A stretch of DNA of 64,000 bases from a virus, in IMG/VR virus record IMGVR_UViG_3300029258_005088; one strand, written 5' to 3'. A model generated the notes under the pieces. It worked only from the letters and a program-made list of their open reading frames with translations, was not told where the DNA came from and ran no database searches. Shown here piece after piece: positions 1-7,572 of the stretch; within the stretch, counting starts at the first letter, position 1; every line of letters starts with the position of its first letter. Made by a program: the position numbers and the translations under genes.

Positions 1-2414
1 ACGTAAGGGAGTACGCCGTCCCATTCCGGATCAGTCGTCGTCGCACAATTCTCGTTGCACACCACAAGACCATCGAAATACCCGGCGATCTTGTAATCAC
101 CTGTAAGTCCTGTCGGGCATGACGCCGGCACTGGACCTTGGTCGAATCCGGAGGACTCTTCCTCTGGGATAGCGGAACTGGTCTCCATGGCGGAGCTTCC
201 GCAAGGAACGCATGCTAAATTGATTTCCTGAGAGGATGGTGCGGCGGAAGACGCTACCACGGGTGGTAGAGGTTGCTCGCTGGCTTCTTTGCTCGAGAAT
301 TCCTGACCAAGGCTGGACACTTCCTGAGCCGAAGACACTTCCTGAGCGGAGGATTCTCCGGAGACCTCGGAACTGATATCCGGAGTGACCGATGAAACTT
401 CCTGATCCGAGCTGACCTCTACGGAAGAGCACTTAACAATAGTAAGCTCATCGACAGTATCCGCACAGCCGCTAATACGAGTATATACTCCCTCCGGCGT
501 GTCTCCGCTTTCTTTGATGCCTTCCCATATCACCACATCCCCTATACCGTCGTAACATTGAACTATAACATACCATCTGGATAATACGGTTTGCAGAGAA
601 ATGTAGTTCGCTGTGTCGCCTGAAAATACCTTTCCGTTGATTCTATCATCTAAGGGAGCTGTCCAGTTACACGCAGATTCGTATGTGAAATTACCATTCC
701 AGATTGACCCAGAGGCCGCATTTGTACATTCTGAACATGCTGCTAAAAACCCATCCGTGTAATTTTCAATGCAATAATCCCCGGTCAGACCAGGAGGACA
801 CGTCGTCGGAACAGGTATCAATGACTCGCTCTGCGTAGAGGATATCTCCTGGGTCAGACTGGATACCGCCTGATCCGAGCTTATAGCCTGTGCCGAGGAA
901 ATCTCCTGTGCGGAGGACACCTCTTGCAGAGGACTCGGGTCTCCGGGATCAGACGGGAACTGCGACGGATCTCCCGCGCTAGGAGCTACCGCGCTCGGAG
1001 CCTCGTCACAACTGAGAGTCACCACGGCTTCTCCGGAGCACTCGGATCCGGACTTCGTCCACGTATTTGTGGCGAATACGGCGTTTATCTCCCACTCGCC
1101 GTTGTTCCACAGTATCCAGACGTCGTCCGGGCCGCCTTGCCGATTATCCCACCAGCAAGGGCCTTGGACGGGATTCCAATAGACTGGGTGCTTCTTGTTT
1201 ATTCCTGCATAATTGGTGACTCCAGATATCTCTACGCAGAGCGTATCCGGAATCTTGGGGAAACAACTGTTGCACGCATTGGACGCGTCTCCATGAATCT
1301 CCGAGGGGGCTTCAAAATCGGATACCGTGCTGGACACTTCCTGTTCCGATGAGACGATCTGGGCCTGAGAAGGCTCTTGGTACGGCGAAGGCTCCTGGTA
1401 CGATGATTCCTGTATGGATGAGATCTCCTGTGCGGAGGACGGGTAAATACCGGTACAATCAGCGCAGTTGTCGTAGGTCTGCTGAACGGTTATGGCGCTT
1501 CCGACGTAGTACGACTCCTCGCACACCACCTTGCACACGATCCTGTAACACCTATCGATGAACGTAGGCTTGATGATCTTGCCCTCTGCGAATTCCGTGG
1601 ATAGATCGTTGGTTACCACGAGATCCGTATCCGTGAATACCTCGCACTTGTCCTCGTCGCCGACCGTTACGACTGCGGACTCGCCTCCTCCGGAATACAG
1701 GCCAGTGGGATCGCACGGATCCGTGCCTCCGGTCATCAAGGACCCGAAATTGACGGTCATCTTCCATTCTTCGTCGAACTCGTCCCAGTAACAGTCGACC
1801 TCACTCAGTCCTTTGTTGAAGGCCGATACGTCCCAGTACCTGTAAGAATACTGAGCATTCCATAGTATGTCGTACTCGTCCGGAGAGGCAGATCCTCCGC
1901 CACCACCATCATGGGATACGTGTATCATCTCGGGTATGATCGACGGAGTGTCGCAATCAGGCTGCCAGCTCATTCTCTGTATCTCCTGCTGGCAGGGGCG
2001 TAGTAGATAACAGTTTCTATTATCGATGGAGGATCCTTCTTCACTGGACGCGGACGGATACTGCAATGCGCTGGGCGCCTCGGATGGTGCGGAGGGCAAT
2101 TCCGATGGTGCGGGGGGCAATTCCGATGGTGCGGAAGGTACCTCGGACGCAGCGGATACAACGGACAATGATTCATCCGAGCTGAGCACTACGCTGGATA
2201 TCTCCGAAGATACGGAGCTATCGGAAGATACGGAGCTATCGGATGAAGACTCGGATATGGATGAGGACGAGGTTTCGCAGGCCTCGCAGTCAGGATAGAT
2301 GCCGTCGACGTCTTCGTGGCTCACAGGATCGGAGACATAGCCCGCGAACTCATAGCAGACGCCATCGATCTTGATGACTTCTCCGATCTTTCCTGGTAAT
2401 ATTACTTCCGACAT
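1..2414 (-). CDS. Large Ser/Glu-rich, Cys-rich modular virion/fibre protein, 3'-truncated by the window edge (>804 aa; absent from the ORF track)
   Basis: Hand translation from ATG at 2414 (MSEVILPGKIGEVIKIDGVCYEFAGY...) stays open to position 1. EISS/EVSS tracts alternate with Cys modules; the module CPxGLTGDYxIxxYxDG...C..C.......W[ND]G occurs twice. Confidence 0.9.
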   Translation of the reverse strand, partial: MSEVILPGKIGEVIKIDGVCYEFAGYVSDPVSHEDVDGIYPDCEACETSSSSISESSSDSSVSSDSSVSSEISSVVLSSDESLSVVSAASEVPSAPSELPPAPSELPSAPSEAPSALQYPSASSEEGSSIDNRNCYLLRPCQQEIQRMSWQPDCDTPSIIPEMIHVSHDGGGGGSASPDEYDILWNAQYSYRYWDVSAFNKGLSEVDCYWDEFDEEWKMTVNFGSLMTGGTDPCDPTGLYSGGGESAVVTVGDEDKCEVFTDTDLVVTNDLSTEFAEGKIIKPTFIDRCYRIVCKVVCEESYYVGSAITVQQTYDNCADCTGIYPSSAQEISSIQESSYQEPSPYQEPSQAQIVSSEQEVSSTVSDFEAPSEIHGDASNACNSCFPKIPDTLCVEISGVTNYAGINKKHPVYWNPVQGPCWWDNRQGGPDDVWILWNNGEWEINAVFATNTWTKSGSECSGEAVVTLSCDEAPSAVAPSAGDPSQFPSDPGDPSPLQEVSSAQEISSAQAISSDQAVSSLTQEISSTQSESLIPVPTTCPPGLTGDYCIENYTDGFLAACSECTNAASGSIWNGNFTYESACNWTAPLDDRINGKVFSGDTANYISLQTVLSRWYVIVQCYDGIGDVVIWEGIKESGDTPEGVYTRISGCADTVDELTIVKCSSVEVSSDQEVSSVTPDISSEVSGESSAQEVSSAQEVSSLGQEFSSKEASEQPLPPVVASSAAPSSQEINLACVPCGSSAMETSSAIPEEESSGFDQGPVPASCPTGLTGDYKIAGYFDGLVVCNENCATTTDPEWDGVLPY
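2081..2138 (-). repeat. 21-bp coding tandem repeat, about 2.7 copies (encodes (P/S)APSELP)
   Basis: c[c/g]gatggtgcgg[a/g]gggcaatt repeated in tandem. Confidence 0.85.
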
Positions 2415-2455: not shown

Positions 2456-3733
2456 CTATCCGCCTCCCGTTTCCGAGGACCCGGACGAAGAAGGCTGAGG
2501 TCCGCAGGGTTGCGGGCAGTTTTCATATCGATAATCATCAGGCGCTATCAAAGTTATTCCCTTCACCTGAGCATATAGGCTAAGCGACGTATTTATGCTC
2601 GTAGCCGGAGGTATGCAGTCGAAGAGCTTCAGACCTTCTACTTCGTTGCAGCAGTAGTAGTTCGTCTCGCTTCCCGCCGGGGCCCCGTTACAGTCTGACG
2701 CTACATAGAAGGTCAGCTCCACTCTATAGCATTCGCCCGGCTGGCATGTGGGCTCGTACGCGGACGGTCCCTGGGACGTTTCCGAGAACAGACTCTCAGA
2801 TGCCTCGGACACGGACTCCAGTGAAGAGGACACGGCGGATACAGACGATGATACGGACGATTCAGATGATGATACGGACGATTCGGATCCTGAAGACGAG
2901 CTGGTGCCGCATTCCACGTACAGAGCGTGGTTGTCCGGAGGCGTAGGCGGCTGCTGTCCGCTACCCGTTCCGCTTGATACGACCTGAATCTCAATATCGG
3001 ACGAGCTGGCTCCTTGAGGACCTCCTCCGGGCACCGTGCTTGATCTGGAGCCTGTCTGCTGAGATGATTCTTCCTCGGACAAAAACTCGCTGGAGGATCC
3101 CAATGTCAGAGACTCTAGGGAAGACTCACCAAGAGACTCTTCGGACAAGGAAGAAGATACGATAGGTTCCTCCAGAGACACCTCGGAAGACTCTTCGGAC
3201 AAGGAAGACGATGATCCTGAAGGAGGAAGCCCCTCACAACATACAACGCCTCTGACAAGGACCTGGGCCGTTGGAAGACCTGCATTCACTACGCCCAGTA
3301 CCTGGAACGCCACGGGCATGTCCTTACACACAGCTGTCTCGTACGCGGTACAGGCCAGGATGGCCCTTTCATCAAGACATGCCTCGTTCTGCTGTACTCC
3401 TAGTACGAATCTGCCTTCTATGGCGTTGTTGACCGTATCCCTGGGGAAGCCGTCATCTCCGGGAAATCCTCGTTCTTCACTCACCCCTATGAGGTTGGTG
3501 TACTTCCACAGATAATCGGGACAACCGGGAAGGCAGCAAGGACAATCCACGTCCAGGCCGTCCGGTCCTTTCGGTCCCTGCGGTCCGGGAGGACAGTTGG
3601 GAGGACACGGAGCAAGCCTGGCCGGCGCTCTCTTGAGACCTGCAGGAGGCGGTGCAAGAGCGCCACCGGCGGCTCTGGCCTTACCAGGCGCCGGTGCGGG
3701 ATCTCTCTTCTTGTTTACCTTTGGTGCAGGCAT
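2456..3733 (-). CDS. Basic Pro/Cys/collagen-like N-terminus + small beta module + Ser/Glu tracts + Cys-rich C-terminal module; probable virion fibre/accessory protein
   Basis: 425 aa; CPPNCPPGPQGPKGPDGLDVDCPCC; SSEE tracts; TAATG coupling to the upstream poly-Hint gene at 3733. Confidence 0.85.
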   Translation of the reverse strand: MPAPKVNKKRDPAPAPGKARAAGGALAPPPAGLKRAPARLAPCPPNCPPGPQGPKGPDGLDVDCPCCLPGCPDYLWKYTNLIGVSEERGFPGDDGFPRDTVNNAIEGRFVLGVQQNEACLDERAILACTAYETAVCKDMPVAFQVLGVVNAGLPTAQVLVRGVVCCEGLPPSGSSSSLSEESSEVSLEEPIVSSSLSEESLGESSLESLTLGSSSEFLSEEESSQQTGSRSSTVPGGGPQGASSSDIEIQVVSSGTGSGQQPPTPPDNHALYVECGTSSSSGSESSVSSSESSVSSSVSAVSSSLESVSEASESLFSETSQGPSAYEPTCQPGECYRVELTFYVASDCNGAPAGSETNYYCCNEVEGLKLFDCIPPATSINTSLSLYAQVKGITLIAPDDYRYENCPQPCGPQPSSSGSSETGGG

Positions 3734-6700
3734 TACGGCAAATTATCGCACTCCTCTGCGCATAGATTCACGTTACCGTCCAGTCCCGGAGGCCCTACAG
3801 GTCCCGGAGGTCCAGGACAACATGGTCTCGGAGGACACGGCGGCGGAGGCGGCGGTGGGGGAGGCGGAGGCGGCGGTGGGGGAGGCGGATCGCTTGGCGG
3901 AGGCGTCCTGTTGTGAGCCAACAGGCCATTCGCGAAGTACGTATGGCTATGCTCGATTCCCCACAGGTTGTAGACCTGTATCTCGCCTTCGACGTAATCC
4001 CAACCAGTGATCTTCAGCCAATTGCCTTTGTCGGTACGTACGCTGTCGCCTATGGCTATCTGTCCGACGTGCTTGAGGTAAGGATACGCCTTCTTCGTCA
4101 TGTCCGGCTCCAAAGAGCACCACAGCAATCTACCGTAGGACTTCGAAACCCACAGAGGATGTTCGTCGGTCAGCTTCAAGCAGCCGTCTTCGCCGAACCA
4201 CAGGTTGTAGTAACCCTCGCGCACCGGAGTCTGTATCTCCAATACCTTCTGGCCGGCAACGGTGTCTTCACGCTCGTTCCACGAAAGCACCAGATCTCCG
4301 ACTTCGACGTCCTCGATGTTCTTCGTGCTTCCGTCTGGAAGAGTAATCGGAGTGCCTGCCAGGAAGCAGGAGCGGTTATGTGCCAGGATCCTGTTGGCGA
4401 AGTACGTATGTGTATCCTTGACGCTGGAGAGATTGAACGTCTGGATCTCTCCTTCGACGTACTCCCATTTCACGATCGTACCGTTTTCGCCGCTGTCCAT
4501 GAAGATCTGATCCATCGCGGCCAGTTGCCTTACGCCCTTCAGATAGGGGTAGAACTCGGCCGTCATCTCGGGATCGATCGACGCCCAGTAGTCTTCTCCG
4601 TCTTGCTTGTGCACACGCAGGGGATGTTCCGCCGTTACGTTAAGGACCTGCTTCACGTCGTTGTCGTCGATGAAGAACATCCTGTAGTACCCTTCGCGGA
4701 GAGGTGCCTCTATGGCCGTAACCAACGCAGGCTTGATCTCGTCGTCGCTCCAGCTGAGGACCTCTTCCCCGGGCATGACGTCCTCGATAAGCTTGTAGGA
4801 GCCGTCCGGAAGAGTGATCATGGTTCCCGGCAGGAAACAGCATTTGTTGTGCACGAGCATCCCATCGGCATAGAACGTATGGGTACCTTCCACGGTGTCT
4901 ACGTTGTAGGTCTGGATCTCTCCGTGAACGAATCCGATGTGCATGACCTGGCACCACCCATTGTTGGCGGTCCTCACCTGGCAGCCTACCGCCAGCCGTC
5001 GAATGTCCTTGAGATGCGGGTACATCTCTCCCGTTCTCTGGGGATTGGCCGAGAACCATCCTTCGACGCCCTCGTCCCTGGCGTATACCGGATGCTCCGG
5101 GGTAAGCTGCAAGATGGTGTCGTCGAACATCGTGATCTTGTTGTAACCATTGGCCAGAGGAGAGGTGACCGTCAGTGCTCGGGCCTTGACCTGCTCTCCG
5201 GTATCCTCGTCCCAGGACAGAAGCTCGTCACCGATCTCGACGTCTTCGATGTTCTTGGAGGATCCGTCGCCCATCAGAACCTTAGTGCCCGGCAGGAAGC
5301 ACTTATTGTGCACCAGAGTCTCGTTGGCGTAGAAAGTCTTCGATGGTTCCACGCCTATGAGATCGAATACCTGAGTCTCTCCTATGATCCTCTTGATGCT
5401 GCGTATGCGTCCACGGGCACCGCTGACGAGCTGTACCTTGTCTCCAACCCGCATGAGCAGTATGTTGCTCAGTTCCGGGTTGAGATGGTAGCTCATGTCG
5501 GGATCCATCGACGCCCAGTACCAGCGACCTTCCTTGCGAACGCGTACGGGATGATCGGCGGTTAGTTCGATCTCGAATGAGTGTCCCTTGCCTGTGTATA
5601 TCTCGAGGAGGACGTGCTCCGAACGCTGTCTTACCTTGATATCGGTGAGCTTGCTGTTCGTCTGCTTGTCACGCATGCAGTTGTAGGACTTGAGAACGTC
5701 GCCTGGCTGAAGCTTTTCGACCTCTTTCTGCGTTCCGTCTGCCATGCTGATCATGGTACCGGCCAGAAAACACCCGCCTTTGTTGTGAACGAGGATGTCA
5801 TCGGCGAAAAACGTCATGGTTTTCGCTATTCTGGCCAGATTATAGGTCTGAATCTCGCCTTCGACCACCTCTATGTCGTTTACGACGAACCATTTGCTGT
5901 CGAAACGGCTATAGAGCTCGTCTCCAACGGCCAAATCAGGCAACATCGTGCCCAAATAAGGGTGATTTTCGAGTGATTTCGCCGAATCTACGGCAATCCA
6001 GCCTTCCCGGCCCTTTTTTCGGCCATACAGAGGGTGATCCGGGGTGACGTGGAGCGTTCTGTCGTCCATTTCGACCCTTGCATACGCCTCTGCGACGGGA
6101 GATTCGACCTGTTTTACCGTATCGACCTCCACTTTTCGGGTGGCTTCGTTGAAAGACAGGATTTTATCGTTGATTTCGACCGTTTCTATGGGTTTTTCGG
6201 TGCCGTCTGCCATCTGAATGCGCGTTCCGGCAAGGAAACAGGCCCCTTTGTTGTGGACCAGGAAGCCGTTGACGTAATAGGTCATAGTCTTCTTCACAGA
6301 CCACAGGTTGTAGGTCTGAATTTCGCCCTCGACGGCCTCGATTTCGGTGATTTTGGCCCTTCCGCCGCATTTCACCAGCATATTTCCGACCTGAAGGAGC
6401 CTGGGACTGCGAATATAGGGGTGTGCCTGCTGTGCGTCGAACGGTTTTACCGCCGCCCACACGACGTCGTCGTTGTGAAGCACCGCCAGAGGGTGTTCTC
6501 CGGTAACCTCTAGGTCTCCGTTGTCTGTTTTGACCCTGAAATAGGATGCATGCGTCGGCGATTCCACGCCGGTAACCGTTCCCGGCTCGTCTTCCTCGGT
6601 AAGTTCGTTGTAGGTAAGGACCTCGTCACCTACCTTCACCTTTTCGATGGGCTTCTCACTGCCATCGGCCATGGTGACGGAGGCTCCTGCAAGGAAGCAC

Positions 6701-7572
6701 CCGCCTTTGTTGTGCACGAGCACGTCATCGGCCAGGAAGTTGTTGTGAGGAGCCACTCCCTTGAGGTTGTAGACCCTGTGTCCGTGCGGCTTGCTTATCC
6801 AGGTGACGGACGTCACGAGCTTGTCTCCGAATATGGTCCTGACACGCATTCCGTCCGTAAGCGCTTTGTCGTCCAGCTCCAGTCCGGGGTTCTCCTCGGC
6901 GCCCTTTTCCGGACTGACGCACCGCCAGAGACGGGTACCATCGCCTTCAATGGTCATAACCGGGTGATCGGAGGTAAGCTGCAGACCGCTTCCATCCTCG
7001 AGATGGATCAGAACGAGCTCGTCGGCCTCCAGCGTGTACACGGCCCGTACCTCGGAAGGAGCCCACTGCTCCAGCGACTCGTCCAGTGACATAACCATGT
7101 CTCCCGGCTTCACCTCTTCGATACGGACGTAACCGTGATCGTACATCTTGATGAGAGTACCGGCGGGGAAGCACCCGCCTCCGCCGCCGTTGTGTACTAG
7201 AAGGTTCTGGCGGAAGATGTCCGCCGACTCCACGTCGACGAAGGTGCAGTTCACAGGAGTGTCCGTGACGATCTCCTTGACCGATCCCACTGGGAACCAG
7301 CCTTCCTCGAGATCGTACAGCTCGACGCCTTCGGACAAGCCTCTGTGTAGCTGGATCCAGTTTCCGGCCTTTGCCATGAACTTCGTCACTGACGGGAACA
7401 CGTACTTGTCGTCGATGATGACGAAGTGCGATACAGGCTTCAGCTGGGCCGCCGTGATGACGTCCCTTTCCGGCTCCTGGGCCTTGGTATCGAAGCCCCA
7501 GACCTCTTCACCCTTCCTGGGGTGATCGACTCTTCCCGTTATCTCGGTATACTTTACGATTGGCGTATCCAT
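3733..7572 (-). CDS. Poly-Hint (intein-like/BIL-type) polyprotein: 1 N-truncated + 7 intact Hint domains + polyPro/Cys/collagen tail
   Basis: Seven repeats of CF[LP][AP]G...TxxHP...[YF][ND][LV]...L[VA]HN of 150-156 aa, at 7173-6709, 6699-6250, 6240-5782, 5772-5305, 5301-4846, 4839-4375 and 4368-3910. The first domain (7572-7189) lacks Cys1 but ends LVHN. SD GGGGGAG precedes the ATG. Confidence 0.95.
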   Translation of the reverse strand: MDTPIVKYTEITGRVDHPRKGEEVWGFDTKAQEPERDVITAAQLKPVSHFVIIDDKYVFPSVTKFMAKAGNWIQLHRGLSEGVELYDLEEGWFPVGSVKEIVTDTPVNCTFVDVESADIFRQNLLVHNGGGGGCFPAGTLIKMYDHGYVRIEEVKPGDMVMSLDESLEQWAPSEVRAVYTLEADELVLIHLEDGSGLQLTSDHPVMTIEGDGTRLWRCVSPEKGAEENPGLELDDKALTDGMRVRTIFGDKLVTSVTWISKPHGHRVYNLKGVAPHNNFLADDVLVHNKGGCFLAGASVTMADGSEKPIEKVKVGDEVLTYNELTEEDEPGTVTGVESPTHASYFRVKTDNGDLEVTGEHPLAVLHNDDVVWAAVKPFDAQQAHPYIRSPRLLQVGNMLVKCGGRAKITEIEAVEGEIQTYNLWSVKKTMTYYVNGFLVHNKGACFLAGTRIQMADGTEKPIETVEINDKILSFNEATRKVEVDTVKQVESPVAEAYARVEMDDRTLHVTPDHPLYGRKKGREGWIAVDSAKSLENHPYLGTMLPDLAVGDELYSRFDSKWFVVNDIEVVEGEIQTYNLARIAKTMTFFADDILVHNKGGCFLAGTMISMADGTQKEVEKLQPGDVLKSYNCMRDKQTNSKLTDIKVRQRSEHVLLEIYTGKGHSFEIELTADHPVRVRKEGRWYWASMDPDMSYHLNPELSNILLMRVGDKVQLVSGARGRIRSIKRIIGETQVFDLIGVEPSKTFYANETLVHNKCFLPGTKVLMGDGSSKNIEDVEIGDELLSWDEDTGEQVKARALTVTSPLANGYNKITMFDDTILQLTPEHPVYARDEGVEGWFSANPQRTGEMYPHLKDIRRLAVGCQVRTANNGWCQVMHIGFVHGEIQTYNVDTVEGTHTFYADGMLVHNKCCFLPGTMITLPDGSYKLIEDVMPGEEVLSWSDDEIKPALVTAIEAPLREGYYRMFFIDDNDVKQVLNVTAEHPLRVHKQDGEDYWASIDPEMTAEFYPYLKGVRQLAAMDQIFMDSGENGTIVKWEYVEGEIQTFNLSSVKDTHTYFANRILAHNRSCFLAGTPITLPDGSTKNIEDVEVGDLVLSWNEREDTVAGQKVLEIQTPVREGYYNLWFGEDGCLKLTDEHPLWVSKSYGRLLWCSLEPDMTKKAYPYLKHVGQIAIGDSVRTDKGNWLKITGWDYVEGEIQVYNLWGIEHSHTYFANGLLAHNRTPPPSDPPPPPPPPPPPPPPPPPCPPRPCCPGPPGPVGPPGLDGNVNLCAEECDNLP
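3836..3888 (-). repeat. Polyproline tract (17 consecutive Pro) containing a 21-bp duplication
   Basis: ggcggcggtgggggaggcgga occurs twice, inside the C-terminal tail of the poly-Hint ORF. Confidence 0.9.

Follow-up and report, generated by a model that had tools for sequence, protein, structure and literature searches.

A tandem array of Hint domains with micro-linkers and a collagen-like tail in a putative phage tail-fibre module

What becomes of a protein in which thioester-forming sites and asparagine-cyclisation sites follow one another in series with nothing between them? The question is raised by a gene in IMG/VR virus record IMGVR_UViG_3300029258_005088, of which we analysed a stretch of 64,000 nucleotides (the window). 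Translation, motif mapping and alignment divide its 1279-amino-acid (aa) product, P0001, into a truncated unit that lacks Cys1 (unit 0), seven complete Hint units and a 58-aa tail (Table 1). Hint chemistry underlies protein splicing, Hedgehog lipidation and intein biotechnology, and a protein made almost wholly of seven active-looking Hint units would put that chemistry to a new use. The answer that we favour, and to which we give an about even chance, is that the gene encodes a self-dismantling precursor of Hint domains resembling type-A bacterial intein-like (BIL) domains, from which a mini-collagen tail would be released to pair with the fibre protein of the next gene.

Class and conservation of the Hint units

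Each complete unit is 150-156 aa long, begins with CF[LP][AP]G and ends with [VA]HN, as located by motif mapping. Aligned with one another, the seven units share only 27-33% pairwise identity, and across this divergence Cys1, Phe2, Gly5, a T-x-x-H-P motif and a terminal L-x-H-N are invariant. Alignment positions C1, T67 and H70 are unchanging in 7/7 complete units; unit 0 has neither Cys1 nor T-x-x-H, and all eight units, unit 0 included, end in HN. The same Cys1, T-x-x-H-P and H-N residues are invariant in the orthologous units of three related loci, represented by P0003 (an orthologue of 1285 aa from a Logan assembly, locus L001/L002), P0034 (a shorter relative, locus L005) and the poly-Hint protein of L004. 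Because the catalytic residues have stayed invariant at such low identity, we conclude from the alignments that the array is old and that every active site in it has been maintained.

The Hint assignment is consistent across methods. P0001 matches the Pfam Hint family (2e-46), other families of the Hint clan, and the NCBIfam intein N- and C-terminal models TIGR01445/TIGR01443. When a profile of the units was compared with the PDB, the best match was BIL2 of Tetrahymena thermophila (6Y75/6TMM, E 7e-15, over the whole unit), followed by the BIL of Clostridium thermocellum (CthBIL, 2LWY, 9e-13). The AlphaFold (AF2) model of Hint 7 reached a predicted local distance difference test score (pLDDT) of 93.4, and a Foldseek search with that model again placed BIL2 6Y75/6TMM best (TM 0.82-0.88, root-mean-square deviation 2.2 Å), then CthBIL 2LWY, then inteins and Hedgehog. 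The Pfam AXH family (the ataxin-1/HBP1 module, PF08517) also matches the Hint units, at 5.7e-35, and ataxin-1 chains (PDB 4J2J/2M41) are among the profile-versus-PDB matches at E 4e-5; this unexpected likeness corresponds to the N-terminal half of these Hints.

As judged by sequence, the seven complete units have every feature that defines type-A BIL domains, and we assign them to that kind: the Hint fold, Cys1, the block-B T-x-x-H, a C-terminal His-Asn, no Cys, Ser or Thr at the +1 position, no homing endonuclease, and a variable, non-housekeeping setting (here a phage fibre module). Canonical class-1 mini-inteins have this fold, too, and agree with the units in their block A, B, F and G residues. 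In contrast to them, the phage units lack a +1 nucleophile (Cys/Ser/Thr in 0/8 junctions), and their exteins of 1-5 residues have no homology to a host protein, so that no conserved host protein would be restored. Canonical class-1 splicing through transesterification is excluded, and standard cis-splicing impossible, because no unit has a +1 Cys, Ser or Thr. The initial annotation had predicted that complete cis-splicing would give a 77-aa product; its count is right (19 linker residues and 58 tail residues), whereas the standard reaction by which it would arise is not available to these units.

How such domains behave is known from their relatives. In the review PMC4031507, BIL domains are described as lacking a +1 nucleophile, with cleavage products dominating for type A, and splicing by type-A BILs is proposed to proceed through thioester formation and Asn cyclisation, after which the liberated amine attacks the thioester. 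PMC7664689 likewise states that cleavage is predominant in BILs. For Tetrahymena BIL2, PMC8616854 reports an isopeptide bond between a Lys epsilon-amine and a C-terminus, BIL2 joining its upstream ubiquitin-like domain to ubl5 and Ras without ATP.

Junctions between the units

The seven linkers read, in order, GGGGG/KGG/KGA/KGG/K/KC/RS, 19 residues in total, and positions 4369-7188 are bounded exactly by the first Gly of GGGGG and the Ser of RS; translation and motif mapping reproduced this string just as the initial annotation had given it. The residues that follow the eight units are G, K, K, K, K, K, R and R, so that Lys or Arg follows HN in 7/8 cases against a K+R background of 9.6% (P=6e-7). 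P0003 is 67.6% identical to P0001 overall, and yet 19/19 linker residues are the same in both, an outcome expected by chance at 0.676^19 = 6e-4. Since all of these residues are kept despite synonymous differences in 10/19 codons, including CGC/AGA for Arg, the comparison indicates that the linkers are real and under purifying selection. In P0034, the units orthologous to Hint 1-4 are 33, 59, 72 and 46% identical and are joined by KGA, KGA and KGG; the tail stands directly after the equivalent of Hint 4. The number of units is 7 in P0003, at least 4 in P0034 and at least 4 in P0037 (locus L004).

With a profile built from the seven units, a search of 1.84 billion representative proteins yielded 31,743 matching proteins at E<=1e-3, the top scorers being mostly multi-Hint. 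We extracted 270 complete units from 175 of the matched proteins. The first residue is Cys in 268/270 and the last two are HN in 248/270; the +1 residue is Lys in 161 and Arg in 29 (K/R = 70%), and S, T or C together occupy this position in only 29/270. We then considered junctions of <=6 residues, of which there are 113 in 78 proteins with the window and P0003 excluded. Lys or Arg opens 85% of them, the other positions are mostly G, C and S, and the commonest micro-linkers are K, KC, KG, R, KGG, KGGGG and KD. The window linkers conform, by this comparison, to a family-wide grammar of [KR] followed by 0-5 small residues, shared by at least 78 other metagenomic proteins. The initial annotation had named unconstrained linkers in homologues among the observations that would tell against its ligation chemistry; the homologues instead show constraint, both in P0003 and across the micro-junctions.

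Lys or Arg is also found at +1 ahead of long C-terminal regions (52%), and among units at the very end of a protein it is Lys that comes next in 22/28, with <=2 further residues after it. Because K and R interchange, precede long regions and end proteins, the data point to HN-[KR] being the C-terminal motif of this Hint clade itself rather than an extein nucleophile; the role of the +1 residue could be one of charge or packing. On the other side of the junction, the -1 residue among 394 junctions is G in 103, S in 66 and C in 66, and GG precedes Cys1 in 13%. The diGly resemblance to ubiquitin is therefore not specific, GG being this infrequent and C and S each reaching about two-thirds of the count of G at -1. 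The initial annotation had likened the linkers to ubiquitin-type Lys chemistry. For that comparison BIL2 supplies a precedent of isopeptide formation without E1/E2, whereas the diGly analogy is weak and +1 Lys and Arg replace each other. Taken as a set, the micro-linkers look like minimal junctions fitted to the needs of the domains (basic at +1, small at -1) and not like a designed extein.

The linker after unit 0 varies in length among relatives. It has five Gly residues in the window and in P0003 and about 54 residues in L004, where a poly-Hint open reading frame that is open to the contig end (L004:1-195) shows an upstream unit ending ...VLIHN, a polyGly stretch (GGR, about 50 G, VG) and then CFLAGT. 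This stretch is an expanded form of the window's GGGGG, and the called start of P0037 is probably wrong.

Tail cargo and the proposed fate of the array

The tail reads RTPPPSD-P17-CPPRPCCPGPPGPVGPPGLDGNVNLCAEECDNLP and is 84% identical in P0003; those of P0034 and P0037 share its layout. Four loci (the window, L001/L002, L005 and L004) have one design, in which the Hint array is followed by K/R, a Pro- or Gly-rich stretch, Cys, four to six Gly-X-Y triplets (four in the window, 5-6 in P0034/P0037) and a terminal C-x-E-E-C-x-x-[LF]-P. Because it is kept while the number of units ranges from 4 to 7 in relatives, the tail stands out as the conserved cargo. No toxin domain follows the Hints, the tail having no family match in Pfam or NCBIfam. 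Scans of IMG/VR with the whole of P0001 and with the tail gave no match, and no relative was confirmed when metagenomes were scanned with the tail alone. In cnidarian minicollagens, too, polyproline and a short Gly-X-Y run are combined with Cys clusters on the flanks. The window tail is comparable to them in layout only; unlike them, it has just four triplets and stands at the C-terminus of a Hint array, and there is no detectable homology.

In each of the four loci the next gene encodes a fibre-like protein whose N-terminus has Cys, a short collagen-like run and CPCC. The initial annotation had compared the 77-aa product, which includes the tail, with this N-terminus, and the Pro/Cys/collagen layout does recur in all four phage loci. 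At L004:2100-2200, the downstream fibre-like gene opens with a 33-aa remnant of a Hint C-terminus (...FFVDGILVHN|KGYPPPP...), which nearly copies the end of the last Hint in the preceding gene. This near-copy speaks for a shared origin of the Hint-to-collagen junctions at the poly-Hint tail and at the fibre N-terminus. In size and position the remnant corresponds to a split-intein C-fragment, and no partner N-fragment was seen.

In the mechanism that we favour, each complete unit would form an N-terminal thioester through an N-S acyl shift, and its C-terminal bond would be cut through Asn cyclisation; unit 0 could undergo a C-terminal cut at most. Cleavage would be the main outcome, as for characterised type-A BILs, and the products would be separate Hint domains of about 16-17 kDa and a 58-aa tail starting at Arg1222. 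The freed tail would probably form a short, Cys-stapled collagen-like triple helix, either alone or with the matching N-terminal segment of its presumed fibre partner, the protein of the translationally coupled next gene; with so few triplets, the Cys knots would decide how stable such a helix is. Aminolysis of thioesters, leading to peptide or isopeptide ligation, would perhaps take place as a side or auxiliary reaction. If cleavage is all that happens, the array would define a novel type of self-removing phage-fibre cap.

Several points weigh against this mechanism. The activity of the units is deduced solely from their conserved residues. One Hint suffices to free the tail, which leaves seven complete active sites under selection unexplained, and cleavage gives no role to the N-terminal thioester machinery of every unit, nor to the freed Hints. 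Tail and fibre protein are alike in layout only: a BLASTP comparison of the tail with the next gene's product (P0002) gave nothing significant. Unit 0 matches the Hint unit profile weakly (hhalign probability 5%), and its AF2 model is all-beta and of low confidence (pLDDT 41); its Hint nature, for which the MAFFT alignment and the terminal LLVHN are the evidence, could not be shown. A search with the N-terminal 133 aa of P0001 returned P0003 as the sole match. Residues 15-98 of P0076, an unrelated protein of 598 aa, resemble unit 0 (phmmer E 6e-10). Because this counterpart lacks the terminal HN and stands upstream of Hints in an unrelated protein, unit 0 may be a separate N-terminal domain family and not a decayed Hint. 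A recent tandem duplication of the complete units was considered and rejected, the units being 27-33% identical to one another against 46-78% between orthologues compared unit by unit.

Because seven kept thioester sites are left unexplained by cleavage, two readings in which the thioesters are put to use stay in contention. Their capture by Lys epsilon-amines, whether of the neighbouring +1 Lys, of another chain or of another virion protein, would give isopeptide cross-links that staple the fibre base or polymerise the product without E1/E2. It would account for the retention of Cys1 and TxxH in every unit, the +1 Lys is strongly enriched (161 against 29 Arg), and the closest solved relative by both sequence and fold is BIL2, an isopeptide maker according to PMC8616854. 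We nevertheless consider such conjugation unlikely: Arg replaces Lys at two window junctions and in 29/270 family units, which suggests a charge or structural role, Lys is present where a protein is about to end (the 22/28 units above), and GG is as rare before Cys1, and C and S as frequent at -1, as described. P0001 moreover has no ubiquitin-like domain (the Pfam scan gave no ubiquitin family match), and the BUBL-like protein P0086 has S or A at +1. Iterative BIL-type splicing, in which all units are excised and the micro-exteins joined by aminolysis, would lead to a 77-aa product, GGGGGKGGKGAKGGKKCRS-RTPPPSD-P17-Cys-collagen, mimicking the basic/Pro/Cys/collagen N-terminus of the fibre protein. 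The linker residues are strictly conserved, the predicted layout is that of P0002 residues 1-73, and type-A BILs can, according to PMC4031507, splice without a +1 nucleophile when the freed alpha-amine attacks the thioester. Against this, the dominance of cleavage in characterised type-A BILs would imply a very low yield for seven consecutive ligations; the product is not conserved, units varying from 4 to 7 and polyGly from 5 to about 54 residues; +1 K/R is present even where nothing comes after the Hint; and the cost would be 1,200 aa for a 19-aa leader. We judge this route to be decidedly unlikely. The two can be stated together as an enzyme-free peptide-ligation device, in which neighbouring junction amines capture the thioesters of the seven units and build either a Lys/Gly-rich leader on the mini-collagen or Lys-epsilon staples at the fibre base. 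That proposal, too, is a doubtful one; if true, it would provide nucleophile-free, multi-site ligation modules and a viral counterpart of BIL2-type ubiquitination without E1/E2.

Two further readings were weighed. That the Hints form a non-cleaving string of beads within a fibre or scaffold, with the junction motifs as relics, would suit a gene that lies among fibre and adhesin-type genes; the invariance of Cys1, T-x-x-H-P and H-N in units of such low identity, and in P0003, P0034 and L004, is unexpected for relics, and makes this very unlikely in our view. Lys and Arg N-termini are secondary N-degrons in bacteria that have Leu/Phe-tRNA-protein transferase. The array could accordingly be pictured as a self-destructing assembly factor, whose cleavage exposes such N-termini (85% of micro-junctions would expose K or R after Asn cyclisation) and whose spent pieces are cleared by ClpS/ClpAP. 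However, the conserved tail would be destabilised as well, and HN-K also occurs in archaeal and candidate-phyla proteins that appear to be secreted, as well as where no residue follows; we regard this possibility as highly improbable. Covalent adhesion to the host was rejected as a candidate function: the Hint thioester transfers the N-extein off the portion that the C-terminal tail anchors, and no virion-host tether would result.

Genomic setting and relatives

All large open reading frames in the window are on the minus strand, and no tRNA was found within it. Because the window contains a baseplate-wedge match (phrog_6) and the immediate neighbours of the poly-Hint gene carry laminin-G (LamG) and F5/8-type-C adhesin-type domains, we place the gene, on gene content, in the tail-fibre module of an uncultured phage. 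The phage locus that carries P0003 (L001/L002) matches the window's gene order. Fibre-like proteins at window positions 3-2414 and 2456-3733, as well as at L001:9192-12165, combine small Cys-containing modules with long Ser/Glu-rich low-complexity linkers and gave no family matches; in L001 they precede a fused two-domain glycosyltransferase (PF01075 + PF00535). The features of the gene are collected in Table 1.

Table 1. Positions of the poly-Hint gene, its units, linkers and tail, and of the related segment in the next gene (window coordinates; res, residues)
Feature	Position	Strand	Remarks
Poly-Hint gene (P0001)	3733..7572	-	stop shares one base with the ATG of the next gene
Unit 0 (res 1-128)	7189..7572	-	truncated, Hint-like, without Cys1 or TxxH, ends LLVHN; 64% identical in P0003
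Linker GGGGG (res 129-133)	7174..7188	-	same in P0003 with 2 synonymous codon changes
Hint 1 (res 134-288)	6709..7173	-	motif mapping, alignment
Linker KGG (res 289-291)	6700..6708	-	KGA in P0034
Hint 2 (res 292-441)	6250..6699	-	motif mapping, alignment
Linker KGA (res 442-444)	6241..6249	-	KGA in P0003 and P0034
Hint 3 (res 445-597)	5782..6240	-	motif mapping, alignment
Linker KGG (res 598-600)	5773..5781	-	KGG in P0003 and P0034
Hint 4 (res 601-756)	5305..5772	-	motif mapping, alignment
Linker K (res 757)	5302..5304	-	single K is the commonest family micro-linker (16 cases)
Hint 5 (res 758-909)	4846..5301	-	motif mapping, alignment
Linker KC (res 910-911)	4840..4845	-	KC is the second commonest family micro-linker (14 cases)
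Hint 6 (res 912-1066)	4375..4839	-	motif mapping, alignment
Linker RS (res 1067-1068)	4369..4374	-	Arg kept in P0003 across CGC/AGA
Hint 7 (res 1069-1221)	3910..4368	-	AF2 pLDDT 93.4; Foldseek best matches BIL2, CthBIL
58-aa tail	3736..3909	-	Arg, Pro-rich with P17, CPPRPCC, four Gly-X-Y triplets, NVNLCAEECDNLP
Cys/collagen-like/CPCC segment (about res 42-73) of fibre-like P0002 (gene 2456-3733)	3515..3610	-	kept downstream in L001, L005 and L004

Type-A BILs such as Clostridium thermocellum BIL4 (PDB 2LWY) resemble the phage units in the Hint fold, Cys1, TxxH, His-Asn, the lack of a +1 Cys/Ser/Thr and of a homing endonuclease, and their occurrence in variable proteins. The phage array differs in that seven complete units and a truncated one abut, with linkers of 1-5 residues and almost no flanking protein, in that its clade strongly favours HN-[KR], and in its setting in a phage tail-fibre operon. 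What is new here is this set of eight abutting units with virtually no extein, the conserved grammar of [KR] and small residues, and the phage-fibre setting with a mini-collagen cargo. Full-text literature searches for tandem or poly-Hint arrays found no relevant description, and among INPHARED phages only single helicase inteins resemble the units.

The BIL2 of the Tetrahymena thermophila BUBL1 locus (6Y75, 6TMM) gives the best sequence and fold match, and in both systems Hints alternate with short or defined cargos. BUBL units, however, are parted by ubiquitin-like domains of about 76 aa that end in G or A, with S or A after HN, whereas the phage protein has no such domain. P0086 (810 aa, from the representative library) is a BUBL-like polyubiquitin with three ubiquitin-like domains, each followed by a Hint of the present clade; its junctions read ...RGA|C, ...KKG|C and ...RQG|C, and HN|S or HN|A. 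The PT-HINT domains of polymorphic toxins (PF07591, 1.7e-30) and the Hedgehog Hog domain (a fold match to 1AT0) share with the array a Hint placed so as to release or activate its neighbour by autoprocessing. In contrast to both, the phage protein lacks a toxin domain as well as a sterol-recognition region, its cargo being the 58-aa Pro/Cys/collagen-like peptide.

Hints of this clade are found in other virion-type proteins as well. About 50 mainly marine metagenome loci (L009-L063, for example L022:6618-8888, L040 and L047) encode virion-type proteins of 750-900 aa, in which an N-terminal part of about 460 aa leads into two or three Hints with KF or RF as linkers; many of them end in ...HN-K. 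In L074:1536-5093, L080 and L078, Hints stand directly before K-SDARLKRNIE..., which matches phrog_6121 (virion structural protein). We take the SDARLKRNIE region to resemble the start of the intramolecular-chaperone (S74) domains of tail spikes; if that likeness is true, these proteins would carry two different self-cleaving devices in series. Same-clade Hints are also inserted in giant DUF4815/phrog_358 phage proteins (L010:2868-9683 and L023:2778-9026), and downstream of the L023 Hint come K, a basic stretch and some 17 residues of polyPro, akin to the window tail.

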